Source of the DNA: a virus
Taxonomy: Duplodnaviria; Caudoviricetes
Direction: 5' to 3' (one strand)
IMG/VR virus record: IMGVR_UViG_3300028844_002929
Coordinates: 1 to 61,223 of that record
DNA length: 61,223 nucleotides
Positions 7,822-54,728 of this stretch are shown here, one piece after another. The notes below the pieces were generated by a model. It was given only the letters and a program-made list of their open reading frames with translations, did not search any database and had not been told where the DNA came from. The stretch's first letter is position 1. Each line of letters starts with the position of its first letter. The translations under genes were made by a program, and so were the position numbers.

Positions 7822-7853
7822 TGTGTTAAGAGAATGTTATGTACCTTTGTAAG

Positions 7854-7907
7854 ATGATTGAATTTATAATTTTTGTGTTTGGCCTGGCGGTCATGGTCAA
7901 CGCCTGA
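7854..7907 (+). CDS. Candidate 17-aa hydrophobic peptide
   Basis: TACCTTTG + 4 nt + ATG; MIEFIIFVFGLAVMVNA. Confidence 0.35.
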   Translation: MIEFIIFVFGLAVMVNA

Positions 7908-17047: not shown

Positions 17048-17866
17048 TTATTGTCTACGACGCCTTTGGTTCCCTGACGTTCTACGCCTTGATCTTTGTG
17101 GCGTTACAGCCGTTTCGCGATGATCATAGTCTGTTGCTTCATACTCTAGGTTTAAAGCATACAACTCATAGTCAGCCGCACCCAGCGTAAGAACTGCATT
17201 AACAGTATGTCCGCGTGCCTGCTCTCCATTAATATTGCCTGGAGTCACGGAGTATAGGTAGACATTACCTGTTTGAGGTAGGACAATCTCACCGCCAGAT
17301 AAGTATATAACATTGGTGCCTATACTTTCCTGGTCAACTAAAGGAGCTAAACTCAAAGCTTCTGGGATACCATCGTAAGTCTGGATCCCAATCGGAGCCG
17401 CAACATTAAACTGAAAGTATGTCGTGTTCGTCGTGCCATCAGGGTTGTCCTGAATATTGGCCAAGAAATACTTTGTATCCCCATCTTGATCGAAGTTGTA
17501 TGCCACGCCCCGTTCCGTAAGTATAGATGCGGCTGGGTTGACTGTCTGATTAGCAACGGTACTATCGTTTACAGTTAAGACTGAAATGCCTTCTACATTA
17601 TTCGTTGACTCTAATGAAAGAGATTTATAGATCTTGTTTCTACTAGGCTTGTCATTGAATGACACTGCAATAGAACTACCACCAGCTGCGCCATAAAAGT
17701 TCGTTCGTCCAGCGCCCTCTGCGTTGTGCTCCCAGATCGGCTGTCGCTCAAACACTTGATTGAAGCTAAAAAACAGGCGGTCAATGAAGGCATAACAGTA
17801 GCTGTAAAAGCTATACCGAGTCTTCCAGAACCCCCCCTTATGGCTAAATGCTATTGTCCTAGGCAT
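17048..17866 (-). CDS. C-terminal segment of tail muzzle/stabilisation protein, encoded separately
   Basis: TIAFS....W.TRYSF, WEHN, NFYG, FND.PS.NKIYKSLSLES; ATG overlaps the upstream stop. Confidence 0.65.
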   Translation of the reverse strand: MPRTIAFSHKGGFWKTRYSFYSYCYAFIDRLFFSFNQVFERQPIWEHNAEGAGRTNFYGAAGGSSIAVSFNDKPSRNKIYKSLSLESTNNVEGISVLTVNDSTVANQTVNPAASILTERGVAYNFDQDGDTKYFLANIQDNPDGTTNTTYFQFNVAAPIGIQTYDGIPEALSLAPLVDQESIGTNVIYLSGGEIVLPQTGNVYLYSVTPGNINGEQARGHTVNAVLTLGAADYELYALNLEYEATDYDHRETAVTPQRSRRRTSGNQRRRRQ

Positions 17867-23800: not shown

Positions 23801-24935
23801 TAGCTTCTATAGGCTCCTCATCAAAACCCTCAACATAATTGCCATAGAACAACCTGTTTTCAACCACAGATACAGCCTCAGCAACTTGAGGGTGGGCATC
23901 GAAATCCCTGTTCTGTTCTTCGTTGGTCAGTCCTGTAAGAACCTCATCGTTATAGAAGTCGTATACAATAGGGTTGCCTCCAAAACCAGGCCATTCTACT
24001 TCGTCGATTTCATACCACGCTCCAATATTACCCTGCCTCACCAAGAGACGAACCCGATCTACTTCTTCGGAAAAGTTGGGCATCCCGTCAACTAGAGACG
24101 GTGCAACAAGCCGAATAAACATCGGGAGCTCCAACTGCGTAGCTGCAAAGCCTTGACGCAGATACTCCTCTGGTACAGCAATGTCAGAATAAGTTGATAT
24201 AGCCGACTCTTCGCCAGTAAAGTAGATGCATTGAAAAGCAAACTGTAATCCAGGTATGCGACGGAAGTTGCTTTGAGCCCGCGTCGGGTCAGCCTCGAAA
24301 GTAAACTGGATGGGATGGATAGGGGCCTTAGTACAAGCCGTTATTAGGTCCACGTCATCTACACTGTTTTCTGTATAGTTAAACCCTGTAGGTCCATAAC
24401 CATTTTCTACACAGCGCAGAACGTCTAGTCTCCGAGGCTCATTCTCGTTGTCCGTAAAGTATAGGATGGGACGGTACGTATCGTTAGGGCCTGTGATATG
24501 GACTACGTCACCGACAACTCTGGCGGTAGAGTTGAATTGAAACTCACTCGTTGTATATATCGGCCTCCAAGCTTGATCACCCCCAGCAAAAAATCCATAA
24601 GCATCGTAAGCATACACCCCCATTTCACTAGGGTTCTGGGAATAGATGAACATATAGATAACTCCCGATCTGGGGTCACTTATCCTACCCAGTACCCGTC
24701 GTTGATAGACTGGCTCAGGCGGAAACACTGCATCTAAGTCAAACGTTTTAATATTTCTTACCTCATTACCTTTCTGAGGCTTTATTACACCTGAATCACC
24801 ACCCTCATTCGCTCCCGCCAACTGATCAAAGTCGTCTGTAACTACGACGTTGAGGGCGTCGTTCATCTCAGTTTTGTTTCGGATCCGATTGTCCTTTCCT
24901 GAATTAAGAAGTCTGGGAAATAACTTATCGATCAT
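17859..24935 (-). CDS. Tail muzzle/stabilisation protein with large insertions
   Basis: N-terminal D.R......DALN, YFTDN.NEPR, NRLFYGNY, GIIHYDQRGR, GYDPLNDEY motifs. Confidence 0.75.
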   Translation of the reverse strand: MIDKLFPRLLNSGKDNRIRNKTEMNDALNVVVTDDFDQLAGANEGGDSGVIKPQKGNEVRNIKTFDLDAVFPPEPVYQRRVLGRISDPRSGVIYMFIYSQNPSEMGVYAYDAYGFFAGGDQAWRPIYTTSEFQFNSTARVVGDVVHITGPNDTYRPILYFTDNENEPRRLDVLRCVENGYGPTGFNYTENSVDDVDLITACTKAPIHPIQFTFEADPTRAQSNFRRIPGLQFAFQCIYFTGEESAISTYSDIAVPEEYLRQGFAATQLELPMFIRLVAPSLVDGMPNFSEEVDRVRLLVRQGNIGAWYEIDEVEWPGFGGNPIVYDFYNDEVLTGLTNEEQNRDFDAHPQVAEAVSVVENRLFYGNYVEGFDEEPIEANITLLYQDRPNEFININIPVRAAVVPIDEDATTLEGDPSNFSNRSTGFVMDLSQLPESLPAGTTITAQIRVAFGGAIEAYQAEDNYHASQTIGVDSIASNAQTLDFANNNAFSNGQQPGSLYASTNADYGALPVGGIGTGVGSPNLRWRTTAEGEGLFGNQNNSPAKVGMHGLSPLRFRGPQGSAEQLTFSFTATATEAITNTLVQISQILNFGLSGGPAATTPANWTVSNSQVNPSYGFDLGLKDPTDNDLYVDYLNDAGTAVTGIEGVGALTLGTGPDAPGDNYVATYNAINTDTPEYAILPTKNSSHLDVSKLIFPVAAINANTTYGSSSGVWGSNAPLGYSIVNSASISFRLRQTPIQSDPNGTLVMHLEIGSLSDCDVRTCLPVLNSAGTLAGGVGPLDQRLRFEGWRVFSPSYLSENNLFGFSLADPRDQTAFLANIAGGPDNDLLSLTRRSRLLGWLYSTEGALTGPVPGEDLFVNNETRRIEYLQSQDIEPDEIVLNSPTLFIAATSLCDGEIHAAIYRGEYVDYNTPEAGSGSDHIFTDSDPEIGPYGSMAILFGVAAWATSFNQNLEGAAEGDLLPEGFNFASSLERIGGQLINSGGVGAADDGAGDPTDLYEFTQTTSTAGPRAEIATDIFLGETDFSGAFRTFKTNATHALGIIHYDQRGRPGNVRPLPTVFVPGYSPAERGGTGRQGRVGMEIALLSDPPDWAFYYQLVYAGSSTVQDFIQYSVGGGYHAIDSEEEALNNIYVSLNYLQFNPSVSYAEAFGAVHPDGTSDLYVYSPGDYLRVISYFTDDTTQIYPSNLIFEIAGQVTLTSDSDTNPLMEADNVDAVHLTGQFLILKNNQQSGGFSFESVLLDNNNPQGDNFWRGRCIVEIVTPNRLAEGDEIVYRETSQVYNVARNNTGVYYQTPTLLFANGDVWWRAVPVNINDYQDSSFINIIQPDVDALGNDNPFSTQPRFRSVYLETDTFNDTFPGCDVNGLGKVKRYKPDAAQVRRFSSVIFSDENNYSVRRLRFTVFNPYLAPFKDLPNEFGNINALLNYNDSLFVVQEDKVSMLPVNRQIISDVLGAESLIATSKVVGNQQMMPSSAGADNNRESVIKVDDSVYFAHKTKKQVYRYNPKKGVEVISDAGMNAYFVDTFEEYGYGDLVRVVSGYDPLNDEYIITVMTTNVIASNAYSTYTQPDLALLGDQGGGNSGGFSPGEDGDGITEWDDTYGGPIEELVDEVVDTGGTAPDGVVPTDADPYPPTNPPGTVSVADFNKDRILDYFNGNSPTGYNPPYEPTSWDDASGDPTTGVTISTKGVFTDGAAGTLGDFTLTNGEGAYLGNFKASSGLITEVNTNIDPANGLADISVGLTDIANYEDYLDNNLIQSNNPNLPGVTLRQALQIRSLALADTILDIIVGLKTGPEDQIVQLITDIGDTVIDVSDQLSLAGLSTEPNIAVLLNATVLANQELQDYMSTVMMAGPSISIQYVSKYKPSTIVTGLTSFQLSDYPLSGPEINSLSQLKSLVNNVGDSITPLLNLNSIDISSAVARLIDTASTLRGQVDVLADQVQALSDAPSSFAPGAASFIPNVTSGQLESTTISTIAGDGVLGFNDVQRDFSLESIQFIVDNLGLSNPGAIELEPDAVARLAFEVLGNLAGADVTATSPDELDGNSLSSDKPNLSLQSLGNLVSNSSNPTATILSNYTAFVDPYNITGSAGYTTADLLASFSRYNDPDTSGLGLYNSQFPAAPLLPSLNMISAYQSWLDSATVSSDPFDAWLATANAAGLTFENRWGPNANGGAKDWNTKFVIRTKFFQWIKGGYLFWNPETEDYAYTMVPSPDDPTVMITKLEADNIAIAPISPNSLLLDNQSMPINNDALVYLGLIEFAPFSFILDLIYGGIPSPPKWFYITLAYRRLVDGGNANPTINQVALETEVGIEENAEWSITNPQNAIAGSNFFGRRSGNGTNLSAASINQAIVDAINNYNA

Positions 24936-29388: not shown

Positions 29389-30819
29389 TTAGAGTCCCTT
29401 GATGATCACGTGCTTGTTAGCAGCACGGACACACAAAGCAACCTCAGAGCGGTAGTGGAACGTAGCCACGTCGCGACCTGCGTCACCGTTGTTGTTGTGT
29501 CCGAGGACGCCTCCACCAGTAATCCAGTGCTCCATCTCACGGCTGTAACCGTTAGCCTCCTTGTAGTACATGGCCAAAGACGGAGCGCTACCGCCCGTGC
29601 GTGGGTCAGTTACGTTCGCCAATGGGATGCATGCACCCTGAAGGTAGTTGGTCGCACCCAAGAGGGTAGGATCGTTCAGCAACTTCCAATCGTGCTTGTG
29701 GAATGTATACCCACCACGCGTGAAGCTCTTGAAGCCAAGCTTGACAGCCATATCAGCATCGTTGTTGAACGCACCGAACTGACCAGGAAGACCAGCAGTG
29801 ACACTCGTAGCGATACCTGACGCAAGCATGTCGTCGATAGCGAGGTCTTGCTTCCGATTCAAGTACATAGCGTACTCGGCAGGAGCGCCTTGCTTATCCA
29901 GCTCAAGGATGAGGTCGTCAAACTCTGCGAAGCTGTCCATCGGATTTCCGAAAGCTCCAGAGATTACGATACCGCGATCCTCAACAGCAGAGACATAGCC
30001 CTCGGAACCGAGACCCATGTCTTGATCAGCGTCGTATGCTGCAGTATTCCCTGCAGAACCGTCGTTACCAGTCTGTCCGAAGAGCATCATCATCTCACGG
30101 CGATCCTCGAAGCGCTTCCGTGCCTCTTGCTCACCGTACATAAACCAACGGTACTCGCCACCACCGACGTTTACCCAACCGATGTTCGTAGCCTGAGAAC
30201 CGTTCACTTGGTAGCGGTCCTTGACGATCATGAATGGGTTCTTACGCTTCACAGCGTCAGAGTCCGTGAAGTGAGCTGGCTGCTCCGTTCCCTGACCGTA
30301 CATGTTACCGAGGACGATAAACTCACGATCGGTAGAGTTGGCAGCACCTGCGGCTGCTCCATCCAAAGGCTGGATAGTAGCCTCCGTAGCATCGGTCTGA
30401 GACGCGTTGTTTACAACCGTCACAATATAACGGCGACCATCAGCGCTGTCCATCACCACATCGTTTGCACCGATCGGAATTCCGTTGGTGCCGTCTGCCG
30501 AAAAGTGCAGAACCTGAGTGTCAGGGCTCGTGCCAGCGGCGTCATCCGTGCTTGCAGTAAGCGTGCGGTGACGACGTCCAGCTTCCCACCAGTCAACTTG
30601 GTCAGAAGTACCGCCGCTCTTTACAGCGCCAGTAAGGTCGAGGAATCCAGTGATACCCTGATCGCCGTAGGTCTCTACGAGGTCGGGCATAACGAAATCC
30701 TTCGTCGTCTTGACGAGGGTGTCCAGAGTCGTGTAGGTCTCTGGTGTCAGACGCAAGTTTGACTGAGCATCGAATTCAGTTGAGCCCGACGTAGTCGAGG
30801 CTCCAGTAATAGTTGCCAT
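29389..30819 (-). CDS. Major capsid protein
   Basis: 476 aa after scaffold; YGDQGITGFL, W.E.GR, RFEDRREMMMLFG, LGFKSFTRGGYTF; strong codon bias. Confidence 0.85.
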   Translation of the reverse strand: MATITGASTTSGSTEFDAQSNLRLTPETYTTLDTLVKTTKDFVMPDLVETYGDQGITGFLDLTGAVKSGGTSDQVDWWEAGRRHRTLTASTDDAAGTSPDTQVLHFSADGTNGIPIGANDVVMDSADGRRYIVTVVNNASQTDATEATIQPLDGAAAGAANSTDREFIVLGNMYGQGTEQPAHFTDSDAVKRKNPFMIVKDRYQVNGSQATNIGWVNVGGGEYRWFMYGEQEARKRFEDRREMMMLFGQTGNDGSAGNTAAYDADQDMGLGSEGYVSAVEDRGIVISGAFGNPMDSFAEFDDLILELDKQGAPAEYAMYLNRKQDLAIDDMLASGIATSVTAGLPGQFGAFNNDADMAVKLGFKSFTRGGYTFHKHDWKLLNDPTLLGATNYLQGACIPLANVTDPRTGGSAPSLAMYYKEANGYSREMEHWITGGGVLGHNNNGDAGRDVATFHYRSEVALCVRAANKHVIIKGL

Positions 30820-30831: not shown

Positions 30832-32001
30832 TTAGATTTTGAAGGTCATGGTAGACCGATTTCTTTGAAGAATGTCCCTGACCTGTTCGCCCAGGGGATT
30901 CGAGTTCTGTGTCCCCGAAGTATCATCGGGGGATTTTGCTTGCACGTTCGCTGCATTCTGCACTACACCTCGTTGACCGTCACTCATGCCCTGCCGATAA
31001 GCAGACTGCACGATAGTGTCGATGTTGTCAATTACAGTGCGGTGAGAGGACAACATATCGTAGTCCCAGCTTCCGTCTTCATGGACATACGGATCAAAGA
31101 AGTTTTCGAGCTTAGCGTTTTTCTGCGCCAAGTGCTTCTTGTAATCAGCATCCATCCCGAAGGTGAATGTCTTGTCGTTACCGAGATCGAACTCGATACC
31201 TTCCATGGCGTCCAGGTTGTGAGCCATCTCCGAAACCCAGTTCTGATCAATCAGTGGCTCATCAGCCTGCTGAGGGACCTCTTTAGGTTTTGGGGTAGCG
31301 TAACCAGAACGCATACGATCGATACCTGATCGAGCAGTCTCGGCGTCCATCTTCAATTGAAGCTGAGCCATACGCTTCTGATCCTCCGTAGCGTCGGAAC
31401 TAAAAGCATACTTACTCTTAATGAGAAGTCCCAGTTCCTCGCCGTTCAGGTTTGGATGCTCTGACGCCATATGGACACGCACCGCCGTCATATCGTCCAT
31501 CTCGGACGGGTTCAACGACTGATACCTAAACCAATCTTGCGCAGACCTACCAGTGTCCTGCATAAACTTTGAGATAACCTGCAGCCCCTCATCGAGCTGT
31601 GGTTGCGATAAGTCATCGAATGACTGAACTTGCCTCCCCAGCTTCTCGCTGATATAGGACATTACAGCACCATCAACATCTTGTTGCGAAAACTGACCCT
31701 GCTGTGGTTCAGGCTGAAACCTTTGCTGCTCGGCGGGGTTGTTTTGGATAGCCTCTTCCTGAGGCGCGGGCTCGACATCCTGACCTTCTGTAGGCAATGC
31801 AGCCTCTCGCTGCATACTAGCCGCCAGGTCGGCAGGGTTGTCAAAGATCTCAAACGGAGCTTTCGTCTCTGGTGCAGGGGTTTCCTCAACCTGAGATTCT
31901 TGTACTGGTGCCGCTGATGGGGTTTCCTGTACTGTCTCCGTTTCCGCTTGTTGTGCGGGAGCCTGCTCGATGGCAGGCTCTTGTACTAATGCTTCTTCCA
32001 T
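30832..32001 (-). CDS. Probable scaffolding protein
   Basis: Acidic, low-complexity N-terminus and helical body; immediately upstream of the capsid gene. Confidence 0.7.
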   Translation of the reverse strand: MEEALVQEPAIEQAPAQQAETETVQETPSAAPVQESQVEETPAPETKAPFEIFDNPADLAASMQREAALPTEGQDVEPAPQEEAIQNNPAEQQRFQPEPQQGQFSQQDVDGAVMSYISEKLGRQVQSFDDLSQPQLDEGLQVISKFMQDTGRSAQDWFRYQSLNPSEMDDMTAVRVHMASEHPNLNGEELGLLIKSKYAFSSDATEDQKRMAQLQLKMDAETARSGIDRMRSGYATPKPKEVPQQADEPLIDQNWVSEMAHNLDAMEGIEFDLGNDKTFTFGMDADYKKHLAQKNAKLENFFDPYVHEDGSWDYDMLSSHRTVIDNIDTIVQSAYRQGMSDGQRGVVQNAANVQAKSPDDTSGTQNSNPLGEQVRDILQRNRSTMTFKI

Positions 32002-33255: not shown

Positions 33256-33516
33256 CTATTTGCTCTTTTTCTTCTTGATTACCCGAAACTTCTTTGTCTT
33301 CTTCGCAACCTTCTTTGGCTGGGCAACATGTTGCTTGCCCTTCTTATTGCCAGCAGCTTTCGCCTTATTTGTTGCTGCTTTCTCTGCAGCACTCAATGCC
33401 TTCCAAGCAGCGTCTGGCAAATAGCGCTTCTTACCCTTAGACTTACTGCCGTCTGAGGTACGCCATTTCTGTTTAGTCCAGGCTCGTAAGGACTCTTGTG
33501 ATGCCTTCCTTGCCAT
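33256..33516 (-). CDS. Basic protein, DUF5872-like C-half
   Basis: QESLRAWTKQKW.T, RYLP..AW..LS..EKAATN; ATG 33516 overlaps upstream TAA. Confidence 0.7.
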   Translation of the reverse strand: MARKASQESLRAWTKQKWRTSDGSKSKGKKRYLPDAAWKALSAAEKAATNKAKAAGNKKGKQHVAQPKKVAKKTKKFRVIKKKKSK

Positions 33517-33716
33517 TAGTCCCGATAACCTCCCCCTGCGGCTTTGTATTGCTGCGCCAACATCTGCGCCTTTCGAGCAGACCATTGACCTGGCTTGCCA
33601 CCTTTGGATCCTGCTTTGATCTTATTGAACAGCCGTTTACGCATACCAGGCTTGGTGTAGTTGCCAGCCTCATTGACACGCGACTTCGTCTTGCCACCTT
33701 TCTTCAAGACCTTCAT
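33516..33716 (-). CDS. Basic protein, DUF5872-like N-half
   Basis: YTKP.MR..L...GGKPGQWSARKAQMLA..YKAAGGGY. Confidence 0.75.
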   Translation of the reverse strand: MKVLKKGGKTKSRVNEAGNYTKPGMRKRLFNKIKAGSKGGKPGQWSARKAQMLAQQYKAAGGGYRD

Positions 33717-44457: not shown

Positions 44458-44863
44458 GTCAGTATCAAATAAAAAGATCTTTAGGGAACACTCCCGATTA
44501 AAACAAAGATACGTAAACAAAAACGACCTTAAAGACTTGAGAGCCAGGCTACTATCTTTTGAACAGAAGTACGATCTCTATCAAAAAGAAATGTTTTTTA
44601 TTCTATGGGCCTACGACCTGGAGTTCTGGACCCTCAGGTACGCAAGTCAAGAGTATGGGTACGACGAAAAAAAACTAGGAGATAGGATTGTATATCCCCT
44701 TCAAAAAGAAGGATATATCAAAAAGCAGTTTGATAAGCTGACACCCTCACAAAAAAGAGAAGACCACCTCTTCAGAGAAGAGACTAAGTACAACTACAGG
44801 GTACGCTACGCTCTGACCCAGAAAGCTAGGCTAATGGTGCAGAGGTTCTACAACAGCCTTTAG
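44456..44863 (+). CDS. Winged-helix-like protein on the opposite strand
   Basis: L...GYI.K...RYALTQKAR wing pattern; fills a gap with no - strand gene. Confidence 0.6.
   Translation: MSVSNKKIFREHSRLKQRYVNKNDLKDLRARLLSFEQKYDLYQKEMFFILWAYDLEFWTLRYASQEYGYDEKKLGDRIVYPLQKEGYIKKQFDKLTPSQKREDHLFREETKYNYRVRYALTQKARLMVQRFYNSL
44504..44511 (-). promoter_or_regulatory. -7 promoter element for the GroES/TerL operon
   Basis: TATCTTTG inside the + strand gene. Confidence 0.5.
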
Positions 44864-45546: not shown

Positions 45547-46050
45547 TCAGTTTGTTTTTCTAGGTGTATCGAAATCAGTGTACAAGATAGTAACTAGTTC
45601 CTTTCTCTCCAGAGCAGCAGCGATGTAAGGGTATACGCGGAAATAAGCGCGAGTGCTGTGTCCAATGAAACCATCCTTCTTTACTTGGTTGTTTTCTTGC
45701 GTATCACCCAACAACAAACATCCAGAAGTATGCTCATCAGTATTACCGCAATGAATGAGAATGTATTCAAAATCAGGTACATCACGAACCCAAAGCATTC
45801 CTTTATGTATCGTCCGAAATCGAGAAGCATATTTCTCATGGAATCCACCAACCCTCCGAAAAGAAAGTTTATACTCTCCCGGTGGGATGCGTGTCTCACC
45901 AGCCACCTTCTTATCACGATGCTCGTCTTCTAGAGTGTAGCACAGAAACTTTCTCGTTCCGTTGGAGATATCGAACAATGCTCCGTTGGTTGAGTCCATC
46001 TCCGAGCTGAACCTTACGACCTCCAGCTGCATCCTTTTTAAGTTGCTCAT
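45547..46050 (-). CDS. DUF5675 putative endolysin
   Basis: CYTLED, RIP.G.Y, ILIHCGN...T.GCLL.G. Confidence 0.75.
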   Translation of the reverse strand: MSNLKRMQLEVVRFSSEMDSTNGALFDISNGTRKFLCYTLEDEHRDKKVAGETRIPPGEYKLSFRRVGGFHEKYASRFRTIHKGMLWVRDVPDFEYILIHCGNTDEHTSGCLLLGDTQENNQVKKDGFIGHSTRAYFRVYPYIAAALERKELVTILYTDFDTPRKTN

Positions 46051-46089: not shown

Positions 46090-46368
46090 TTAGCAGTTAG
46101 GTTTGGCGCAAGACTCAGATGTTTTCCTTCCCTTTGATTGATTCCTGCGCTTACTAACCTTCTGCTTTACCCTACGCATGAGAGAGTTCCGATTCACAGT
46201 CTTAGGACGACGGGGCTTCTCCTCTTTTTCCTCCTCCGCTTTTTCTTCCATTTCCCCCTCCATCTGAGAAGATGGTAAGAACCTAGGGTTAGACGGCGCT
46301 ACGTTTCTGCGCTTTTTCTTTTTCCTGCGGAACGGTCCGCCGTCGTCATACCTACGAACTTTCATCAA
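46090..46368 (-). CDS. Highly basic protein with N-terminal KVRRYDDGG tag
   Basis: K/R-rich 92 aa. Confidence 0.7.
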   Translation of the reverse strand: MMKVRRYDDGGPFRRKKKKRRNVAPSNPRFLPSSQMEGEMEEKAEEEKEEKPRRPKTVNRNSLMRRVKQKVSKRRNQSKGRKTSESCAKPNC

Positions 46369-46943
46369 TAGGGGCCAAGACCCAGCATCAGTCCAATGCG
46401 CTGCAAGGTGTTCAAATCTGTAGGGATCTGCTGACCACCAGGTCCCATGACGCCTGGCACGGTCTTCGGGGTTTTGCTGTATTCGCTAATACCTATACCA
46501 AGAGCAGCAAGCAAAGCATTTCTGCCCATCATACGAGCACTTTCGTTACGAAAACCCTTTTTCATCATGTCCTCACGGTTGAACCGATCACTAGACAGGC
46601 CGTCTAACAGAAAGGAAACGTCACTAGGACGAGCGGGGAAGGATCCAGTGCGGCGACCCTCACGATTCGCCATGCGGTTCTCCTTTCTCATATCCTGTCT
46701 TAGCTGAGCCAAGATCCCTTTGTCTGCAAAGTATTGATCATTGGCAAAGCGATCACGACCCATGGGTGGGCTAGTCATGCGATCTTCATCAGGGCGCATA
46801 CCTCCATTCTCAGCCATGAAGAACGGGACTTTCTTGCCGTCCTTCTCTACCATCTTCAGGCCTTCCTTGCCATAGTACATACCGCCTCCACCATACTCCT
46901 CGGTTTCGGGACGCATGCCCCCATACTTATACATAGTCTTCAT
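46365..46943 (-). CDS. Putative internal head protein with several xxGG motifs
   Basis: MKTMYKYGG, EYGGGG, MVEKDGKKVPFFMAENGG; ATG 46943. Confidence 0.65.
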   Translation of the reverse strand: MKTMYKYGGMRPETEEYGGGGMYYGKEGLKMVEKDGKKVPFFMAENGGMRPDEDRMTSPPMGRDRFANDQYFADKGILAQLRQDMRKENRMANREGRRTGSFPARPSDVSFLLDGLSSDRFNREDMMKKGFRNESARMMGRNALLAALGIGISEYSKTPKTVPGVMGPGGQQIPTDLNTLQRIGLMLGLGPY

Positions 46944-47392
46944 GTCAATGCTGCAAAAACCTCCAACTGGCAAGACGCGCTGTCTGCCTGAGCGAGGATG
47001 TTATCTATGTCTGTCAAGTTCCCCGCCGCAGCGCTAGAATTACCAGCTGCGTTGGCATCGATCTTACTATTAAATAGAAGGTAGCTTTCGCCAGCATCCA
47101 ATTTAATCATATACTCCTCTGTACCATCGTTCTGGATGGTGATGGCAACAAAGTTTGTTGCGTCTAGATTCGTAATACGGAAGTAAGAGACGTTAGTCGT
47201 AAGCAGAGTACCCCCTGCTGCATTGGCTGCCGAAGCATCCATTTGGACTACGGTCTGCGCCGAAGCCGTACCAACATCCAAGATCCGATGGAATGTCTCA
47301 GTGATGCTCGTGACATCAATAGAAACCTCACTGCCACGCTCCCTTCCATTGAGCTCTAGCTCTTCAGTAACTTTTACTGTTAGTGTTGCCAT
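46940..47392 (-). CDS. Small beta-rich structural protein (paralog family)
   Basis: YFRITNLD..N...KLDAGES. Confidence 0.7.
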   Translation of the reverse strand: MATLTVKVTEELELNGRERGSEVSIDVTSITETFHRILDVGTASAQTVVQMDASAANAAGGTLLTTNVSYFRITNLDATNFVAITIQNDGTEEYMIKLDAGESYLLFNSKIDANAAGNSSAAAGNLTDIDNILAQADSASCQLEVFAALT

Positions 47393-47396
47393 ACTA

Positions 47397-47404
47397 CAAA
47401 TATA
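47397..47404 (-). promoter_or_regulatory. -7 promoter element (leaderless geometry)
   Basis: TATATTTG 4 nt before ATG 47392. Confidence 0.65.
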
Positions 47405-47410
47405 AACAGA

Positions 47411-47445
47411 TTAACCGCTGCAGCTTTCGCAGTCTTCCTCTTCAT
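47411..47445 (-). pseudogene. Internally deleted copy of the 44-aa EDCESCSG gene
   Basis: ATGAAG joined out of frame to GAAGACTGCGAAAGCTGCAGCGGTTAA (EDCESCSG*). Confidence 0.6.
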
Positions 47446-48452
47446 TTCTTAATCACTTTAAAAGGGGTCTTCACCTTACCGCCACTTCCGAACTCAATCT
47501 CGTATTTCTCTCGATACTCTTGAACCTCCTTTTCGCCAAGGTCTCTGACCTTCCACTGTTTTCTTTTATCGTCCCACTCTTTCACGGCGTAAGGAACCTG
47601 GCCTGTCCTAGTGGTCCCCCTACCTCCAGTATTTGCGGCCTTGAATAGATATTCTGGCTGCCTTCCAGTGGGCTCCTTGATTACTCTAAAGTTACGTTCA
47701 GGAATAGGGTCTGGCTCAGGGGACGGTTCTGGTTCTGGCTGGGGCTCAGGCTCAGGCTCAGGGGCAGAAACTTGCTTTGCAACCCTAACCTGTTCTTTCT
47801 CAAAAGGCTCTGGACCATACTTTTCTCTACGCTGTTTCTTTTCTTCTTCCGTGAGGAGGTCATAGGGTTTTACAGCGATAGGATCGTAGTAAGGAAACTC
47901 CACCTTGTCGCCACCAGGACTCTCCTGCTCATAAGGCGGATTTAATTCTCTTACCTCTCTAGGGTTTACAATCGGCACGTATTGCGTGGCGGCACCTCTA
48001 ATTAACCCTTGTGGCTGAATACCAGTGTCATAGTATCCCAGTGGAAGTCTAGGATTTACAACCGAAGTAGTCAACTCTCTAACCCTAGTAACATCACCAT
48101 CAGTCGTAGGGTTATATATCCCGTAATAGTCATCTATAGAATCTATGCCTTCATAATGACCCTGACCTAGAATGCCCCCATCACGAAGATCATTATATAT
48201 TGCTATTTCTGCATCAGTGTATTCTCCTCTAGATTTTCTAAAATGATCTGCCAGTCTTTGTAAGACGTCTTCTCCTGTTTCTACTCTAGTTTCATAAGGC
48301 CACATCTCAACCATTCTTTGTAGCCATTGAGCAGCGTCGTAAGCGTCCAAACTATCCTGTCTAGTAGCTACAGACGCAGGAAAGGCGTCAGTGCCTTCTG
48401 GAGGCCAGTTTCCATGGCTGCCTCCGTGTAGATACTTCCTTCTTACTTTCAT
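47442..48452 (-). CDS. Putative cargo protein (tagged at both ends)
   Basis: MKVRRKYLHGG ... FGSGGKVKTPFKVIKK; ATG 48452. Confidence 0.7.
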   Translation of the reverse strand: MKVRRKYLHGGSHGNWPPEGTDAFPASVATRQDSLDAYDAAQWLQRMVEMWPYETRVETGEDVLQRLADHFRKSRGEYTDAEIAIYNDLRDGGILGQGHYEGIDSIDDYYGIYNPTTDGDVTRVRELTTSVVNPRLPLGYYDTGIQPQGLIRGAATQYVPIVNPREVRELNPPYEQESPGGDKVEFPYYDPIAVKPYDLLTEEEKKQRREKYGPEPFEKEQVRVAKQVSAPEPEPEPQPEPEPSPEPDPIPERNFRVIKEPTGRQPEYLFKAANTGGRGTTRTGQVPYAVKEWDDKRKQWKVRDLGEKEVQEYREKYEIEFGSGGKVKTPFKVIKK

Positions 48453-48583
48453 CCTGAGCAGCTTTCGCAGTCCTCTGGAGAGTCCAGGTTGCACGTGATC
48501 TCCCCACTCTTCAGCTTCTCGGCTGTATCCTGGAGTTTTTTCTTATCAAGGAATGTCGGAGCATCCCATTCTTCTTCCTTCAT
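48449..48583 (-). CDS. 44-aa acidic peptide ending CNLDSPEDCESCSG (not in ORF track)
   Basis: ATGA overlaps at both ends; exactly fills the gap. Confidence 0.8.
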   Translation of the reverse strand: MKEEEWDAPTFLDKKKLQDTAEKLKSGEITCNLDSPEDCESCSG

Positions 48584-51500
48584 TTCTTCAGCACTTTAAA
48601 TGGTGATTTCTTTTTGACCTTAATACGCCCGCCTTGCTTGTACCCTCGGATTTCTCCCGATCCTTGCTGAAGAGACTTCGGAACCTTAAGCTCAAACCAA
48701 GTGTTGCCATGCTCATCCGTTACAGGTTTGAACTCATATCCCAGCTTCTTGGCAACCTTGGGTAGGCGGTCATAACTCTTCATTACTGTTTTATGACTAT
48801 CGCTAACGCCTTCACCACGCAGTAATGCGTCGAGTTGCGATTGAAGGCTGCTCATGTGATTCTCTACAGCTGATACTCTTCCCTTTGCCTCTACACCTCT
48901 CCTCAAATTCTTGCTCAAAATCGCAGCTTGATCACTGAAATTAGCATAGTTGAACATTGGAGACTTATCTGGCCGACCCGAAAGGCTATGGAGTTTATCG
49001 ATATCATCCATCAAGTGCTTATAGAGGTAGTCCTTCTCCATCATCCAGTGGTAATCCTTAGATTCCTGAATAGATGCTTGATTCTGGGGTGGGGGAGTGT
49101 TCCCTGCAATAGGCATATGGAAAGGAATGTCATCTTGCGGGCTCTGTTTAGTTGTGCTTCTATACAGAGCAGCAAAATTATCTTCTACAGACGGTTCGCC
49201 CATAGGCCTGTCATACATCGTCGGAACATAATTCTCTATATACAAATCCACAACGTCTATTGGAGCCATCCGCATCCTATCCAATACAGTATGGGGCTCG
49301 AAGAACCTATTGTTAAACAGATAATTTGAGAAGCGCTCGGCGATTCTCTCCATTGCATCTATACCCCGGTCGTTCACAGCAGAGCCCCGATACTTAGTGT
49401 ATTCTTGGTAATCTGGATGCTCTAAGAAAGCCCCCGATAAATAATCTTCAGCTGGTAATTTTGTTACTACAAGTCTATCTTGAGTCGCAGGCCTCTGATC
49501 CGCTGCCCACTGAGCCTCCTGTACTATATTTTCGACAGCCGTATCCATCTGCCCTGAGCCCTTGAAATCCTCATACAAATTGGATAGTCGAACGTCACTA
49601 GAGAACGTTGCAAAGGTCTGATCCATACTGGCGTACATCTTCCCAGGGACACGACTTGCACTCGTTACATACTGATCTAGCCGACGATCGAATCGATGCC
49701 TAGCAGATTCGCTCATTGCACGCGTTACCCGACCATTTCGCCAGTGATCAGCGAACTTCATGAAGTTGTAACTATGTACAGATTTTTGCCTCGCCAGTGA
49801 TATCTCCCCATTGTATATTTTGTCAGCCGTATCTTCAGAAGAATAAATTAAATCATCAACATAATCAGGAAGCTTGCGAGCAAACTTCTCGGAGTAATCC
49901 TCCATTGAGTCAGTGCCAGTAAGGGCAGATTTACCCTGACTTACAAGAGGTGTCCTAAACAAGAGTTGCTGAGCGCCTTCTCCCAGAGCTTCTATCTGCT
50001 GGCCAAAAATAGTGGCCTCACCATTGTCAAATGGGGTTGCGGTGTTTTCGTACTGACCAAGAGGACTGTCCAAATAGTTCTGAGCGTGGTTAAGCTCCAT
50101 TTGAAGTGTCTCGAGGGCTTGTTGTTGAGTTTCAATATCCTGTTCTACGCGTCGGGGACTTCTAGTGTAGCCCTGAATAACAGCAGTAGTAATGCCAGTA
50201 GGAAAGCGGATAGCGTCATACCCAGAATTTTGACCTACGATTTGTGACAATAAGAACTCATCCTGGTTCTTCACAAAAGCCTTCTGTATTCTTTCGTCAA
50301 CAGGCCCTATCTGATCTTGTCCGAAGTCATCTATATCACCATAGATCTCACCAGTTCCAAACACCTCATCCATCTCTTGCTCCGTACCCTCCATCTCCTC
50401 GACTGCACGACTGAAGCCCTCTAAGGCATTATCATATTCTGATGCGATGTTAGCGTCTGTAAAAGTACCAGGAGGATTTATGTCGTTCTTCTCCAATGCG
50501 TCGATAATCTCACCTGAGAAAAGCTGCAAGTCGTTTGATATGCTTGCGCCCTTAAATTCTTTATCGTCTAACCACTCCAGTGTTTTTTGCCCCTCATCAT
50601 GGGCTTCAATTGCCGCCGCATATAGCTGATCAGACAATTTCCTATGCCTCCTGTCCAAGTCACTATATTCTGGGAATAGATTAGTCACCTTCTTTTGAGT
50701 GTCCATCCACCAATTGACATCATATAGGAAGGCATTATTCTCATCGATGACGCCGTCCTTCATTACCTCAGCAATCTGTTTTTTGACAGAGACACCAGAG
50801 GCCCCTGGGGCCAGATCTTCAACATCAAATCGATAAGAGCCTCCAATATTCTGGAATAGCTCGTGCGGGTTTCGAGCTTGAACCTTACCTACGGTTGGAT
50901 TTACAGTAGCAAACCTTCTGGTCAAAGTGTTGTAGGCTTCATCGGGAAAACTGTACGCGAAACGACGAGGCTCCCCAGGAGTCTGCGTGGCATCTAACTC
51001 CATTATGTTTGTCGGGAAGTCTGGGTTGTAATCGTAACTGTCTTGAATAAATCGACCCCTTTGAGCCACATCCGACTGCATTTCTCCGATGTACAAAGTT
51101 CTCGTTTGAGCCAGATTGCCCCCTCTAACAAACCCTCTGTAGTGACCTACTACATTAGGGGAGATGCTCCTCCAATGACCAGAGTCCTGACCAATGTAAC
51201 TACGACCTACAGGATTCTGAGGATTAGCAATAATAAGTTGAGTGCCAATATCATTGATCTCGGACCGTGGGCCCTGAAGATTACCGAACCCATAGTCAGA
51301 ATACGACTGAGTTTCGTCATGCACGAATCGATCACCTAAAACCTTAGCCGTTTCTTGTCGCACTGAATTCAAGTCATAGAACTCCTTACCCTTTTTACCT
51401 ATGACTGGATCCATATCCATCAAGGCATCCGTGAGTACGATCTTATCGAATTCAGACAGACCTCCTTTACTAAGGTACTGAGCCATCTGAGCCTTCGGTA

Positions 51501-52617
51501 TCAACCCTTGCTTATTAACGCGCTTCTCCAACTCACCCCCTATCATGAGGGAAGGAATCTGCTGGACGTTTTTCTCCTTACGGGCATCAATTGGACCGTA
51601 AGCGTCCTCAAATTTCTCTGCTTGATACAACCCCAACTCATGTGAAAACTGCATCGCACGATCCAGGTCACCACTAGGGGCAGCAGCGGTCATCTCCTGC
51701 TGCGTCATCCCTTGCAGCTTCTTATATGGAATCTTTGCCGCTGCCTCTTCTCCCAGCTTAGAACCTTCAATTAAGTTCCGAGTTACGCGACGCTCTGCGG
51801 TTTCCAGTCTAGGCCCGCCGCCAGGCAAAGCCCGACGGCCAAACACGGCTTCTTCTCCCGCAAGGATCTCTGCCTCCCGTGCTGCCGCCTCCGCTGCATC
51901 ATATATCCCTGACATAGACGGAGGTTGCATTCGAGCCTGGCCCTCACGACTCATCCCCGATGCTAGGCGATCTATCTCATTAGCAAACCTACCTTGCTGC
52001 CCTACTATGTCTGATGTCCGTGCTGTGATCTTAGGGTCCTTCCCCATCATACGACGGAAGAAGTTCTTGACATCCTCTGCACCCTGTCTCAACACACCAC
52101 CGACAGCAGGGCCAGAAGGCATCTTACGCATCGCAGCAGAACCAGCGGTAGCTACTAAGGATGGTAGATCGTCAGTATCGACCCCTTCCCGAAGCAACAT
52201 GTTCATCATCGCGGGATTACCCATCGCACTTAACATCAATGGCAGTTCCATATAGTCCTGATAGAACTTGTTCTGCGCATCGATCACACCCCCCGTCATA
52301 TCCAAGTAGTCCGTCACCCCCTGGCTACCAAGGTTCTGATAGACTGCAGCTAGGTCGCCCTCCGTCCTAGCGATCTGTTCGGGGACGTTGGGACTATACG
52401 CAGGCACACTACCATCAGTCACGACCTCCGCAGCAGGGAGATTCACTTGGGCAACAGGTAAATCGTATGGATCTGTAGGTACCATGGCATTTCCGCCTTG
52501 ATACGTATTGAGATAACTCAGTAGCTCCTGAACATCCTGGGGACGTCCACCTTCCTCATACTTAGATACACGCCGCTTCTTTAAGTGCGTGCCCTTGCGC
52601 TTAGATTTCGACTTCAC
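48580..52617 (-). CDS. Large putative cargo/polyvalent-type protein (tagged at both ends)
   Basis: 1345 aa; KYEEGG ... YKQGGRIKVKKKSPFKVLKK; internal H.R...LYIGEMQSD motif. Confidence 0.7.
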   Translation of the reverse strand: MKSKSKRKGTHLKKRRVSKYEEGGRPQDVQELLSYLNTYQGGNAMVPTDPYDLPVAQVNLPAAEVVTDGSVPAYSPNVPEQIARTEGDLAAVYQNLGSQGVTDYLDMTGGVIDAQNKFYQDYMELPLMLSAMGNPAMMNMLLREGVDTDDLPSLVATAGSAAMRKMPSGPAVGGVLRQGAEDVKNFFRRMMGKDPKITARTSDIVGQQGRFANEIDRLASGMSREGQARMQPPSMSGIYDAAEAAAREAEILAGEEAVFGRRALPGGGPRLETAERRVTRNLIEGSKLGEEAAAKIPYKKLQGMTQQEMTAAAPSGDLDRAMQFSHELGLYQAEKFEDAYGPIDARKEKNVQQIPSLMIGGELEKRVNKQGLIPKAQMAQYLSKGGLSEFDKIVLTDALMDMDPVIGKKGKEFYDLNSVRQETAKVLGDRFVHDETQSYSDYGFGNLQGPRSEINDIGTQLIIANPQNPVGRSYIGQDSGHWRSISPNVVGHYRGFVRGGNLAQTRTLYIGEMQSDVAQRGRFIQDSYDYNPDFPTNIMELDATQTPGEPRRFAYSFPDEAYNTLTRRFATVNPTVGKVQARNPHELFQNIGGSYRFDVEDLAPGASGVSVKKQIAEVMKDGVIDENNAFLYDVNWWMDTQKKVTNLFPEYSDLDRRHRKLSDQLYAAAIEAHDEGQKTLEWLDDKEFKGASISNDLQLFSGEIIDALEKNDINPPGTFTDANIASEYDNALEGFSRAVEEMEGTEQEMDEVFGTGEIYGDIDDFGQDQIGPVDERIQKAFVKNQDEFLLSQIVGQNSGYDAIRFPTGITTAVIQGYTRSPRRVEQDIETQQQALETLQMELNHAQNYLDSPLGQYENTATPFDNGEATIFGQQIEALGEGAQQLLFRTPLVSQGKSALTGTDSMEDYSEKFARKLPDYVDDLIYSSEDTADKIYNGEISLARQKSVHSYNFMKFADHWRNGRVTRAMSESARHRFDRRLDQYVTSASRVPGKMYASMDQTFATFSSDVRLSNLYEDFKGSGQMDTAVENIVQEAQWAADQRPATQDRLVVTKLPAEDYLSGAFLEHPDYQEYTKYRGSAVNDRGIDAMERIAERFSNYLFNNRFFEPHTVLDRMRMAPIDVVDLYIENYVPTMYDRPMGEPSVEDNFAALYRSTTKQSPQDDIPFHMPIAGNTPPPQNQASIQESKDYHWMMEKDYLYKHLMDDIDKLHSLSGRPDKSPMFNYANFSDQAAILSKNLRRGVEAKGRVSAVENHMSSLQSQLDALLRGEGVSDSHKTVMKSYDRLPKVAKKLGYEFKPVTDEHGNTWFELKVPKSLQQGSGEIRGYKQGGRIKVKKKSPFKVLKK

Positions 52618-53270
52618 TTCTTTACGATTTTGTAAGGGATCTTACCACCATCTTTATTCAAACGTGCTGCATTTCTAGCTTGCAGCGCATATCGCCCTGG
52701 ATCAACATTCATACTAGGGGCAATGAAATCATTGGAGTAACCCTGCGCCTGCTGACCCCCGCGCCCTACACTGAACATATCCTCAATGTCACGCAAGAAG
52801 GACTTGTAGCCGATATTGTTCATCCTACCAGTGAGATTCATTTCATCAATGACATTCATAGCACGGCGCTGGACATCAAGGATGTTCATAGACTCGTCTC
52901 TGGCGCCCTCATTGATCGCCCTTTGCGCATAATACTGCAGTGGCTCTGCTGCACGTCTAGGATCTAGTGAAGGCCCTAACTCACCGTATGTCAGTGCTTT
53001 GCGTGGTATTGATGAGGCAGCTGGGGCAGCCTTAGCCCCCAACCCTAAGGCTTGTCCTACAGCGCGAGCCGCAGGAGCCAAGAATCGAGCCAGGGGAAAC
53101 GTCCCTAGCAGATAATCCTGTGGACCAAATGTGTTTTGAATAGCCCCGCTGCCCCCACGAGCATACGGGGACTGAGCCATATACTCCTCCATAGACGAGT
53201 ACTGGGGGATTGTGTCTTGAACAGATGGGGATGAAGGGTCGCCACCTCCTTCTAACTTCTTGATCTTCAT
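52614..53270 (-). CDS. Putative cargo protein (tagged at both ends)
   Basis: MKIKKLEGGG ... NKDGGKIPYKIVKK. Confidence 0.7.
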   Translation of the reverse strand: MKIKKLEGGGDPSSPSVQDTIPQYSSMEEYMAQSPYARGGSGAIQNTFGPQDYLLGTFPLARFLAPAARAVGQALGLGAKAAPAASSIPRKALTYGELGPSLDPRRAAEPLQYYAQRAINEGARDESMNILDVQRRAMNVIDEMNLTGRMNNIGYKSFLRDIEDMFSVGRGGQQAQGYSNDFIAPSMNVDPGRYALQARNAARLNKDGGKIPYKIVKK

Positions 53271-53274
53271 AGTG

Positions 53275-53282
53275 TAAAGATA
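53275..53282 (-). promoter_or_regulatory. Variant -7 element (leaderless geometry)
   Basis: TATCTTTA 4 nt before ATG 53270. Confidence 0.45.
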
Positions 53283-54072
53283 AGAATCCTACTTAGACAA
53301 CAGAAGGCAGTAATAGTCCTTGGGAATAGGGCACAAGTACCGCGAATACACCAAATGTCTCACAGAATCCCAGGGTAATATTATTTTATACCCCCCATTC
53401 CTCTGCGTCTATAAGGTAAAGTTACACCAAAAAATTGACATTGTCAAATTACCCCCAGTATTACACATCACATGCACAATTCCCCTGTTTATCGACTGTC
53501 TCTCTACGCTAGTTTTCGACATTGTCTATAAATCTGCCCTTTTTTTTTCTGAGTACCCATAGTTATAGACGAACTGTAGATAAAGCACCTGGGGTTGAAA
53601 TAGCGAAGGAGGGGTTTTGGGGAAAATAAGAAACGGAGAACACACATCTGAAAAAAAATGGGTGAACATTAGAGATCGGGGATTATATATATGTATATGC
53701 GTTGGCGGCGGCGAACCGAAATGACTTTGCGGCGGTGGCTTTTGTGTTAGTATTTGTATTTGCGCAATTTTTCAGCGTTTTTTCCTGTTAGTATTAGCGT
53801 CTACCCCCCTGATTATCAGGCAATTAGGGGATCCCCCTGCCGGTGGCCCATTAACCTATTACTAATACCCGAATTCAATTGTCTATTATTTGTTTATGCT
53901 AATACTAACAACAACTATATAATATCTATTTGCCCCCCTGTTTTTCGGTTCATCAGTATTACACCATTTTTCTTTCGTCGATAACTTGTTGGTTGTCAGT
54001 GAGTTACACAAAAGGGGGTCATTTTATACGGCTGTATGTCGAATCTTCGCTTCATAGTCGAAAAGTTGTCTA
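53283..54072. other. Divergent non-coding region; candidate origin and/or genome terminus
   Basis: No credible ORF; AT-rich with C/G runs and palindromes; strand switch point. Confidence 0.55.
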
Positions 54073-54080
54073 TACATTTG
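54073..54080 (+). promoter_or_regulatory. First early promoter (-7 element)
   Basis: TACATTTG with TTCG about 20 nt upstream, at the AT-to-GC transition. Confidence 0.6.
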
Positions 54081-54084
54081 GCCC

Positions 54085-54712: not shown

Positions 54713-54728
54713 GTAAAAACCCAATACA

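Follow-up and report, generated by a model that had tools for sequence, protein, structure and literature searches.

In P22-type scaffolding proteins and in encapsulin cargo-loading peptides, a C-terminal peptide that follows a flexible linker docks inside an HK97-fold shell. Adenain cuts adenovirus precursors at (M/I/L)xGG, and in phage T4 the prohead protease removes the capsid-targeting sequence at a site (Leu/Ile-x-Glu) at its end. In crAss001, gp45 (cargo protein 1) has been found in virions, where part of it was resolved on the portal and tail barrel (PMC10172136); the accessible text of that paper names the cargo proteins without giving a loading signal, and does not discuss the ends of gp45.

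The DNA analysed here, called the window, comprises the 61,223 nt of IMG/VR record IMGVR_UViG_3300028844_002929 (positions 1 to 61,223) and comes from a phage of marine type.

Three adjacent minus-strand genes of the window, encoding P218, P1345 and P350, have both ends in common (Table 1): at the N-terminus a basic stretch followed by [KR][KR]-Y/L-x-x-G-G, and at the C-terminus aromatic-x-x-G-G-K/R...[FY]K[VI]xKK-stop. The N-terminal element (N-tag) stands alone on four further minus-strand genes (P92, P202, P61 and ORF66), and is thus carried by seven window ORFs whose bodies are dissimilar. An earlier sequence-only reading of this DNA had reported three dissimilar proteins with the same ends, which we confirm; once the tags were trimmed, the bodies gave no BLASTP match below E = 0.18. 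All the peptides that it quoted were found, on the minus strand, including the N-tags at 46090, 46365, 33713 and 33516, of which MKTMYKYGG in the 46365 gene is weak, and the C-tag-like core FRVIKK of P86, four residues before the stop; NEKGG and IAEGG in P398 also exist, but are internal and carry little weight.

Table 1. Tagged genes, tags and neighbouring features of the window.
Feature	Position	Strand	Description
P218	52614..53270	-	first gene of leftward block
P218 N-tag	residues 1-10, 53241-53270	-	MKIKKLEGGG
P218 C-tag	residues 205-218, 52617-52658	-	ends NKDGGKIPYKIVKK-stop
P1345	48580..52617	-	large, matches no known family
P1345 N-tag	residues 1-24, 52546-52617	-	basic 19-mer, then YEEGG
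P1345 C-tag	residues 1326-1345, 48583-48642	-	ends YKQGGRIKVKKKSPFKVLKK-stop
P44	48449..48583	-	small, acidic, three Cys
P350	47442..48452	-	Pro/Glu-rich linker inside
P350 N-tag	residues 1-11, 48420-48452	-	MKVRRKYLHGG
P350 C-tag	residues 321-336, 47445-47492	-	ends FGSGGKVKTPFKVIKK-stop
P150	46940..47392	-	untagged, all-beta jelly-roll-like, within tagged module
P202	46365..46943	-	weak N-tag MKTMYKYGG and more [MY]-x-x-GG copies
P92	46090..46365	-	small, very basic, N-tag MKVRRYDDGG
DUF5675 protein	45547..46050	-	related to crAss001 gp30, L,D-carboxypeptidase-type lysis enzyme
Terminator-like hairpin	44677..44700	-	T8 tail
P61	33713..33898	-	small, N-tag MNTVKYNKGG
ORF66 (phrog_17747)	33516..33716	-	N-tag MKVLKKGG
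P86 (phrog_14910)	33256..33516	-	basic, ends ...KKFRVIKKKKSK
Scaffold-like protein	30832..32001	-	just upstream of capsid gene
Major capsid protein (phrog_13704)	29389..30819	-	
Muzzle protein, crassvirus-type (PF25731)	17859..24935	-	
P398	15830-17026		carries internal NEKGG, IAEGG

The N-tag consensus is Met, 3 to 20 mostly basic residues and [KR][KR]-Tyr-x-x-Gly-Gly, and that of the C-tag is aromatic-x-x-Gly-Gly-[KR]-hydrophobic-[KR], an optional basic insert and [FY]-K-[VI]-x-K-K at or near the stop. The aromatic-x-x-GG unit is oriented alike in N-tag and C-tag, and the basic peptide is in every case the distal part; the fifth place (Y-x-x-G-G) is Tyr, Leu or Met in all 52 aligned N-tags, and Tyr stands three residues before GG in 44 of them. 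Gly-Gly codons vary between tags within the window, and this synonymous variation at the DNA level points to selection on the protein.

The payloads between the tags match little that is known. P218, P350 and P1345 belong to no family in PHROGs, Pfam or NCBIfam, Pfam searches of 42 tagged proteins gave only DUF192 at threshold and two sub-threshold matches, and the ESM Atlas returned only unnamed viral clusters (0.80 to 0.83). The P218 body is predicted to be mostly disordered and its tags unstructured (mean pLDDT 42), and in P1345 a conserved C-terminal domain of ~40 residues lies directly before the C-tag. P202 also contains internal YGGGG and MAENGG and a conserved C-terminus (...MLGLGPY), canonical MK.KKY..GG starts recur in the P61 family in IMG/VR, and P44 adjoins tagged genes in relatives too. 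The hairpin may end the transcription unit that contains the tagged genes. P150 is confidently modelled as a jelly-roll (pLDDT 83.5), with weak fold matches to cupins, spore-appendage subunits and unnamed viral proteins; neither it nor P1345 has a match in the phage collection. We considered P150 as a tag receptor and rejected it, its link to the tags being adjacency alone.

Across all six frames of the window the C-tag core [FYM][KR][VI][ILV]K[KR] occurs five times, three times directly at a stop, once four residues before a stop and once at an N-terminus. In the window and four complete relatives, a strict N-tag pattern was matched by 13 of 439 ORF starts versus 3 of 1667 internal Met (Fisher p = 3.6e-7), and by 13 of 262 ORFs on the late strand versus 0 of 177 on the other (p = 0.0012), where late is assigned by strand and neighbours and the tagged genes stand at the start of the leftward block, adjoining the early region. 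The tags lie far beyond chance, which is excluded. In these five complete genomes the tags are confined to the strand of the structural and lysis genes.

Among IMG/VR relatives, found with P150 as the anchor, the tags are the best-conserved segments of their protein families. Pairwise identity in the P218 family falls from 0.54 in the N-tag to 0.20 in the middle and rises again to 0.60 in the C-tag, and invariant columns of the P218 and P350 alignments fall mainly in the tags. The 129 tagged proteins form 47 BLAST clusters, and gene content around them differs: one relative (G004) has a doubly tagged gene of 568 residues at the far end of its late block, and another (G001) is without P218 and P1345. 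The tags are portable between payloads. The strict pattern has no match in 10 of 45 related loci, one of which has a variant C-tag, and in two relatives (L013 and L002) the C-tag is internal, followed by 21 further residues as a conserved module.

The N-tag is also widespread and virus-specific. Its DNA pattern was found in at least 119 IMG/VR stretches versus 18 for a permuted control, and 596 Gb of bacterial genomes yielded 79 matches, mostly short non-ORFs or signal peptides. Nearly all unique viral N-termini (59 of 61) start ORFs of at least 40 residues, and 39 of these 59 ORFs contain a second aromatic-x-x-GG. A signal peptide or lipoprotein leader is ruled out, since none of the 59 viral ORFs has a hydrophobic stretch after GG, past the basic N-terminus, compared with 10 of 33 bacterial look-alikes. 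The GlyGly-CTERM/rhombosortase signal consists of Gly-Gly, a membrane-spanning hydrophobic helix and a basic cluster, and is ruled out by the 7 to 15 mostly basic residues that follow GG here.

The muzzle protein ties the phage to the crass-like tail architecture, and the ends of crassvirus cargo resemble the tags. crAss001 gp45 starts with a basic stretch and FDTGG and ends ...YTGG...GGKVRTKKKK..., and its cargo-1 homologues in Kolpuevirus, DAC15 and IAS virus show the same end pattern as a loose match, GG running on into a glycine-rich hydrophobic stretch in two crassvirus cargo-1 proteins. The pattern is absent from the cargo-2 homologues examined, and neither crassvirus cargo-2 nor the RNA-polymerase cargo proteins gp47 and gp49 carry a tag, so the tag is not required for crassvirus packaging. 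Four crass-like contigs gave a muzzle match; in each of them N-tagged genes follow on the strand of the muzzle, 3.6 to 8.3 kb downstream, in the position of cargo genes, and in one contig four of the five genes next after the muzzle are tagged. The portal-binding domain of cargo-1 (PF25725), found in gp45 (Pfam E = 2.3e-66), was found in none of 40 window proteins searched with Pfam, and P1345, P350 and P398 gave nothing below E = 1 against gp45 by BLASTP; a likeness of P398 to this domain, seen by eye, was therefore dropped.

On balance we lean towards reading the tags, from sequence, as short linear signatures of proteins inside the virion, for cargo or ejection, in a muzzle-bearing podophage lineage, whose hosts are probably Bacteroidota, with a looser form in crassviruses. 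This reading is partly supported by the gp45-like ends in virion cargo and by the N-tagged genes in cargo-gene position downstream of the muzzle. The portable two-part cargo tag that had been proposed is supported as regards its portability, its conservation above that of the payloads, its restriction to the structural and lysis strand and its gp45-like ends; the cut site within it is not supported.

Packaging is inferred only, as are the partner bound by the tags and the direction in which the proteins leave. The payloads would be largely disordered, and the charge of their basic ends could retain them in the procapsid, at first against the very acidic N-terminus of the scaffold and later against DNA; the N-terminus of the scaffold-like protein in the window is strongly acidic. 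The C-tag core (K-F/I-K/R-I/V-L) may attach to the capsid protein on its inner side, since it resembles C-terminal peptides of scaffold-like proteins of related phages. The ends in relatives and window read ...TGTKFKLV, ...GSKLRFKRKK, ...GKGLKIRSPKK and ...STMTFKI, the last (...RSTMTFKI), from the window, having a weak likeness to the C-tag. For a complex of the capsid protein (25 aligned rows) and the final 40 residues of P1345 (9 aligned rows), prediction gave no answer (score 0.00), which speaks neither for nor against docking. The N-tag may lead the protein out via portal and tail, N-terminus first, a direction that is proposed, not demonstrated, for crAss001 gp45.

A bolder form of the cargo reading is tentative, and we would give it perhaps a minor chance: an address code, common to the crassviruses of the human gut and to abundant Bacteroidota podophages of the sea, that would be necessary and sufficient for loading arbitrary, largely unfolded proteins into the capsid and for ejecting them N-terminus first, the C-tag copying the coat-binding end of the scaffold. 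Its parts would be a front of basic-KK-Y-x-x-GG and a back of aromatic-x-x-GG-K-hydrophobic-K-hydrophobic-hydrophobic-KK.

Alternatively, the tags could be DNA-binding or condensing tails, whose basic ends, Tyr and flexible Gly-Gly bind DNA in the head or the cell without acting as an address, their similarity being convergent or due to recombination between neighbours. The tags are extremely basic in composition, and many tagged proteins are themselves small and very basic, as are proteins of Cellulophaga phage phi40:1 that are virion components by mass spectrometry (GenBank record annotation), a point that equally favours the cargo reading. The tags are absent from the cultured relatives phi40:1 and elemoE and from the assembled genome MW202828, which share portal and capsid families with the window phage; a capsid of this type therefore does not depend on them, and a protein receptor in common is not implied; the want of a conserved protein partner across tagged and untagged relatives also suits DNA binding. 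Composition alone, however, does not account for the near-invariant Tyr three residues before GG (44/52), nor for the fixed orientation of the motif and its strict placement at protein ends, and we regard this alternative as unlikely.

Less likely still are removable propeptides, basic ends that a viral or host protease would remove after Gly-Gly as the head matures, on the pattern of adenovirus or T4. The uniform orientation of aromatic-x-x-GG with the basic peptide distal would suit a protease whose cleft recognises residues that precede the cut, the sequence-only reading had drawn an analogy to (M/I/L)xGG sites, and the targeting sequence is the only part common to T4 internal proteins (PMC3012670). 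However, searches of 40 late proteins with PHROGs and Pfam, and of 19 with NCBIfam, revealed no protease family, the adenovirus rule has the hydrophobic residue one place nearer to GG, and tandem copies, present in 39 of 59 viral proteins, would cut proteins into small pieces; in P202-type proteins a binding motif fits the tandem aromatic-x-x-GG better than a single cut site. The C-tag is also followed by the conserved 21-residue module in L013 and L002, and no word starting with 'cleav' or 'proteoly' occurs in the crAss001 structure paper. The cut site at GG proposed earlier is thus not borne out, given the late genes without a protease family and the internal C-tags of two relatives. The DUF5675 protein, the sole peptidase-family member found among the late proteins of the window, was rejected as a missing head protease: crAss001 gp30, with which it shares 31% identity (E = 6e-14), carries an L,D-carboxypeptidase annotation and adjoins the holin, an M15 peptidase stands in for the DUF5675 protein in relatives, and the latter is a lysis-type enzyme.

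We consider it very improbable that the tags are host-directed motifs that dock proteins on membrane, nucleoid or chaperone after injection or synthesis, with packaging irrelevant. The tagged genes come first in the leftward block, beside the early region, and their payloads have no assigned function, but the tags occur on the structural and lysis strand only, they take the cargo-gene position in crass-like contigs, and gp45, the sole experimentally placed protein with such ends, is in the virion. It is scarcely credible that the tags are by-products of gene junctions or translation starts, with Lys-rich starts and ...KK-TGA ends serving initiation or coupled ATGA/GTGA overlaps: four-base overlaps do join P218 to the GTG start of P1345 (...AAG TGA / GTG) and P1345 to P44 (...AAA TGA / ATG), but this gives no rationale for Tyr-x-x-Gly-Gly or its varying Gly codons, a 50-base gap follows the P350 C-tag, and relatives keep the tags in other gene orders and without an overlapping neighbour.

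We found no description of the motif in the literature, as covered outside subscription journals. The question touched is how podophages and crassviruses pick proteins for carrying and injecting. If the motif flags cargo, the injected proteome of thousands of uncultured phages would become readable from sequence (the capsid family by itself has more than 3000 metagenomic members), and the motif would point to fast-evolving payloads, possibly active against host defences. If the address code held, sequence would suffice for predicting virion cargo, and these phages could be loaded with proteins of choice; tags that are DNA-binding tails only would amount to a modest remark on internal-protein composition.

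As in the T4 internal proteins (IPI-III, Alt; PMC3012670), a short N-terminal peptide is the sole common part of diverse proteins, whose location in the head would here be by analogy. Unlike the T4 capsid-targeting sequence, to which it is unrelated in sequence, the window tag ends x-x-Gly-Gly, with a protease family not found among late proteins, it has a C-terminal counterpart and tandem copies, and its phage is a podophage with a crass-type muzzle rather than a T4-type myophage. The scaffold-like proteins of related phages end K-F/L-K/R-hydrophobic, resembling the C-tag core, and by analogy with P22-type scaffolds the C-tag may bind similarly; the consensus of encapsulin cargo-loading peptides differs from it. 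Adenovirus precursors, which are DNA-associated core proteins of basic character, likewise have GG and a hydrophobic residue close to each end, the analogy drawn in the sequence-only reading, but here that residue is at the fifth place, not the fourth, a spacing that differs by one, and no clan CE or other protease was found among the late proteins searched. Compared with crassvirus cargo-1, whose ends are looser, the tagged genes of the window lie elsewhere, at 46-53 kb and 33 kb with the muzzle at 17.9-24.9 kb; like crAss001 gp45, however, the tagged proteins combine a basic N-terminus followed by aromatic-x-x-GG with a basic C-tail, GG-K-V-R and a Lys run in gp45, which also has many internal aromatic-GG motifs.

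All peptides that the sequence-only reading had quoted were found on the minus strand of the window. Beyond the doubly tagged proteins (P218, P1345 and P350, listed in the table), the N-tag, a basic stretch followed by [KR][KR]-Y-x-x-G-G at the protein start, also heads P202, P92, P61 and ORF66, and the core of the C-tag, which joins aromatic-x-x-GG to a basic and hydrophobic end, turns up only five times when the window is read in all six frames, three of the copies lying exactly at a stop codon. A strict N-tag pattern, too strict for the weaker tags on P202 and P61, was applied to the window plus four complete relatives; it matched 13 of 439 ORF starts and 3 of 1667 internal methionines (p = 3.6e-7), statistics that exclude chance as the source of the tags. 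In the same genomes, the strict N-tag was present in 13 of 262 late-strand ORFs and in none of 177 ORFs on the other strand (p = 0.0012), with 'late' defined by strand only; the tags are real and are confined to the structural and lysis strand. The tagged proteins are otherwise dissimilar, as had also been stated, the best E value being 0.18 in BLASTP of tag-trimmed bodies.

Features of the window and of related IMG/VR sequences (minus and plus denote strand)
Feature	Sequence	Position	Strand	Remark
LPD38 giant protein	window	8325-14132	minus	
Muzzle protein	window	17859-24935	minus	crassvirus-type, PF25731
Small all-beta protein	window	28933-29328		
Major capsid protein	window	29389-30819	minus	
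Scaffold-like gene	window	30832-32001	minus	
Small all-beta protein	window	32807-33217		
P86	window	33256-33516	minus	C-tag-like core 4 residues ahead of stop
P92b	window	34098-34376		phrog_7595; small, basic
Portal	window	37379-39832	minus	
Large terminase	window	39869-41992	minus	
Plus-strand ORF	window	44456-44863	plus	within minus-strand late block
Terminator-like hairpin	window	44677-44700		
P174	window	44860-45384		next gene past lysis enzyme
P202	window	46365-46943		
P150	window	46940-47392		small all-beta protein
P350	window	47442-48452	minus	fourth gene of block; N-tag and C-tag
P1345	window	48580-52617	minus	second gene of block; GTG start; N-tag and C-tag
P218	window	52614-53270	minus	first gene of block; N-tag and C-tag
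Region between divergent gene blocks	window	53271-54728		1.4 kb
Holin	window		minus	in minus-strand block
886-residue protein	G001	51575-54235		
KEGRP end-module protein	L013	8107-9855		
KEGRP end-module protein	L002	498-2558		
KEGRP end-module protein	L048	5421-6128		
KEGRP end-module protein	L051	1048-1824		
Consecutive small genes	L052	~1800-9300		288-kb contig

The window is an entire record of 61,223 bases and a podophage genome, with a long minus-strand gene block running from ~53.3 kb down to 7.5 kb and replication-type genes on the plus strand. A Bacteroidota host is likely, because the closest named relatives by portal (26 to 31% identity) are Flavobacterium elemo phages, Cellulophaga phages and an assembled spring genome; metagenomes, Tara samples among them, contain more than 3000 relatives of the capsid protein. 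The tagged genes adjoin the early region and, together with the lysis enzyme, may form a separate unit set off by the terminator-like hairpin. Adjoining this hairpin is the plus-strand ORF, which is conserved in each of the four complete relatives (57 to 76% identity) and may encode a regulator. The region between the divergent gene blocks is without a convincing ORF, GC skew switches sign nearby, and it may be regulatory or an origin. Three small all-beta proteins of the window have similar starts (MATLTV..., MPTTTATVTL... and MATVF...) and may be head decoration or fibre proteins; the predicted structure of one of them, the untagged P150, is a jelly-roll, and up to four such genes lie upstream of the scaffold gene in relatives. 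P202 has a conserved end, ...LQRIGLMLGLGPY, and P174 starts with MLGLGLGLG, and the LGLG pattern of this end and this start is retained in relatives.

Written as a DNA pattern, M-[KR]-x-[KR]-K-Y-x-x-G-G matched at least 119 IMG/VR stretches, and the DNA of 80 of these loci gave 61 unique N-termini, 59 of which head ORFs of at least 40 residues. None of these 59 ORFs has a signal-peptide-like core, 39 contain another aromatic-x-x-GG, and in 25 the tail is basic. When the pattern was permuted with its composition unchanged, it matched 18 IMG/VR stretches, with 5 of 14 unique N-termini heading ORFs of at least 40 residues. In bacterial and archaeal genomes totalling 596 billion bases, the N-tag pattern matched only 79 stretches, mostly short non-ORFs or true signal peptides, one of them apparently phage-like. 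The strict C-tag pattern was found only in seven contigs of the window's phage group. The tags are virus-specific, and they are portable, as proposed: the 129 tagged proteins belong to 47 BLAST clusters, of which 27 are singletons. At E ≤0.01, 39 of 42 tagged proteins had no Pfam match. In L052, from a giant phage, ~20 consecutive small genes share the start MK[IL]TKRQLKRIIREE followed by unrelated sequence; this common start is another candidate N-terminal tag.

To retrieve IMG/VR relatives, P1345, P350 and their neighbour P150 served as anchors. Among 45 P150-anchored loci, 35 had at least one tag-pattern match (2 of the 35 dubious) and 10 had none, one of these carrying a variant C-tag that the pattern overlooked. 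The consensus of 52 unique N-tags is [KR][KR]-Y-x-x-G-G, the Y position being Tyr in 44 and Leu or Met in 4 each, and that of 19 unique C-tags is aromatic-x-x-GG-[KR]-[FIV]-[KRP], an optional basic insert, then [IVY]-x-x-K-[KR]-stop. Judged by alignment, the tags are the best-conserved parts of their protein families: identity within the P218 family is 0.54 in the N-tag, 0.20 in the middle and 0.60 in the C-tag, invariant columns of the P218 and P350 alignments lie mainly within the tags, although the bodies span 216 to 442 residues in the former family and 322 to 627 in the latter. Gly-Gly codons vary between tags, and selection therefore acts at the protein level. Among the relatives the tags move: P218 and P1345 are missing from G001, a gene of 568 residues past the holin in G004 is doubly tagged, and each genome has, upstream of the scaffold gene, additional small basic genes with the N-tag. 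The C-tag need not be terminal, since in two P350 relatives it is followed by a conserved 21-residue module. A second end module, ...KEGRP.DQAVAIALSMRDR..L-stop, ends several otherwise different N-tagged proteins and in L029 lies near an N-terminus instead. P92b corresponds to the N-terminal part of the 886-residue G001 protein at 88% identity: this virion-module gene has been fused or split.

We consider the tag motifs very probably functional, and we lean slightly towards their marking virion cargo. A structure model predicts the P218 body to be largely disordered; ejection proteins are often disordered, and the tagged proteins would be carried in the particle. It is plausible that the basic tags pair by charge with the scaffold in the procapsid and then bind DNA, because the N-terminus of the scaffold-like protein is very acidic. 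The C-termini of scaffold-like proteins in related phages, K-F/L-K/R-hydrophobic, come close to the C-tag core, which weakly suggests that the C-tag copies the coat-binding end of the scaffold; the window's own scaffold-like protein ends only in T-F-K-I. Aromatic-x-x-GG has the same orientation at both protein ends, with the basic peptide always outermost, and this fixed orientation points to directional recognition, which could mean a protease, GG having been proposed as a cut site. However, a search of the late proteins against PHROGs, Pfam and NCBIfam found no protease for tag cleavage, the DUF5675 protein adjoining the tagged genes is a lysis-type enzyme, and tandem motif copies and internal C-tags suit binding better than cutting; the cut-site claim was thus not supported, and we regard cleavage at GG as unlikely.

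For the view that the tags mark virion cargo, gp45 of crAss001 (cargo protein 1) offers a comparison. According to PMC10172136, gp45 is found in virions, parts of it are resolved on the portal wing and within the tail barrel, and the authors propose that it exits N-terminus first. Its ends are similar to the tags, with a basic start followed by F-D-T-G-G resembling the N-tag and an end ...Y-T-G-G-T-K-K-A-K-G-G-K-V-R-T-K-K-K-K... resembling the C-tag, and elsewhere it contains some ten more GG motifs of aromatic or hydrophobic type. Of the 27 listed crAss001 structural-region proteins, no other has ends of this kind, and the cargo-1 homologues of Kolpuevirus, DAC15 and IAS virus have the same end pattern, which was absent from the cargo-2 homologues examined. 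The match of cargo-1 ends to the window tags is loose, and no body homology was found between gp45 and window proteins. A muzzle match was present in four of five large IMG/VR contigs with N-tagged genes, all with in-frame TGA, and each of the four has its N-tagged genes on the strand of the muzzle, 3.6 to 8.3 kb downstream of it; in one crass-like contig, with TGA read as Trp, four of five genes past the muzzle begin with basic residues and [FY]-Q-x-G-G. The muzzle genes of G006, G009, G007 and G010 (L286, L287) have 2 to 4 in-frame TGA codons in the matched stretch, and the crass-like muzzle read with TGA as Trp is a single 1566-residue frame that contains 13 TGA codons altogether, a pattern suggesting that these crass-like phages have reassigned the stop codon. 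Tags are not required for packaging in crassviruses, since cargo-2 and the RNA-polymerase cargo are untagged, and they are absent from cultured and assembled relatives sharing the portal and capsid families.

No description of the tag motif was found in the literature searched, which took in few subscription journals. Shared address tags on phage cargo are established for T4, as described in PMC3012670, and the idea of such tags is thus already there; unlike those of T4, the tags of the window's group stand at two ends, have tandem core motifs and are tied to an experimentally placed crassvirus cargo protein.
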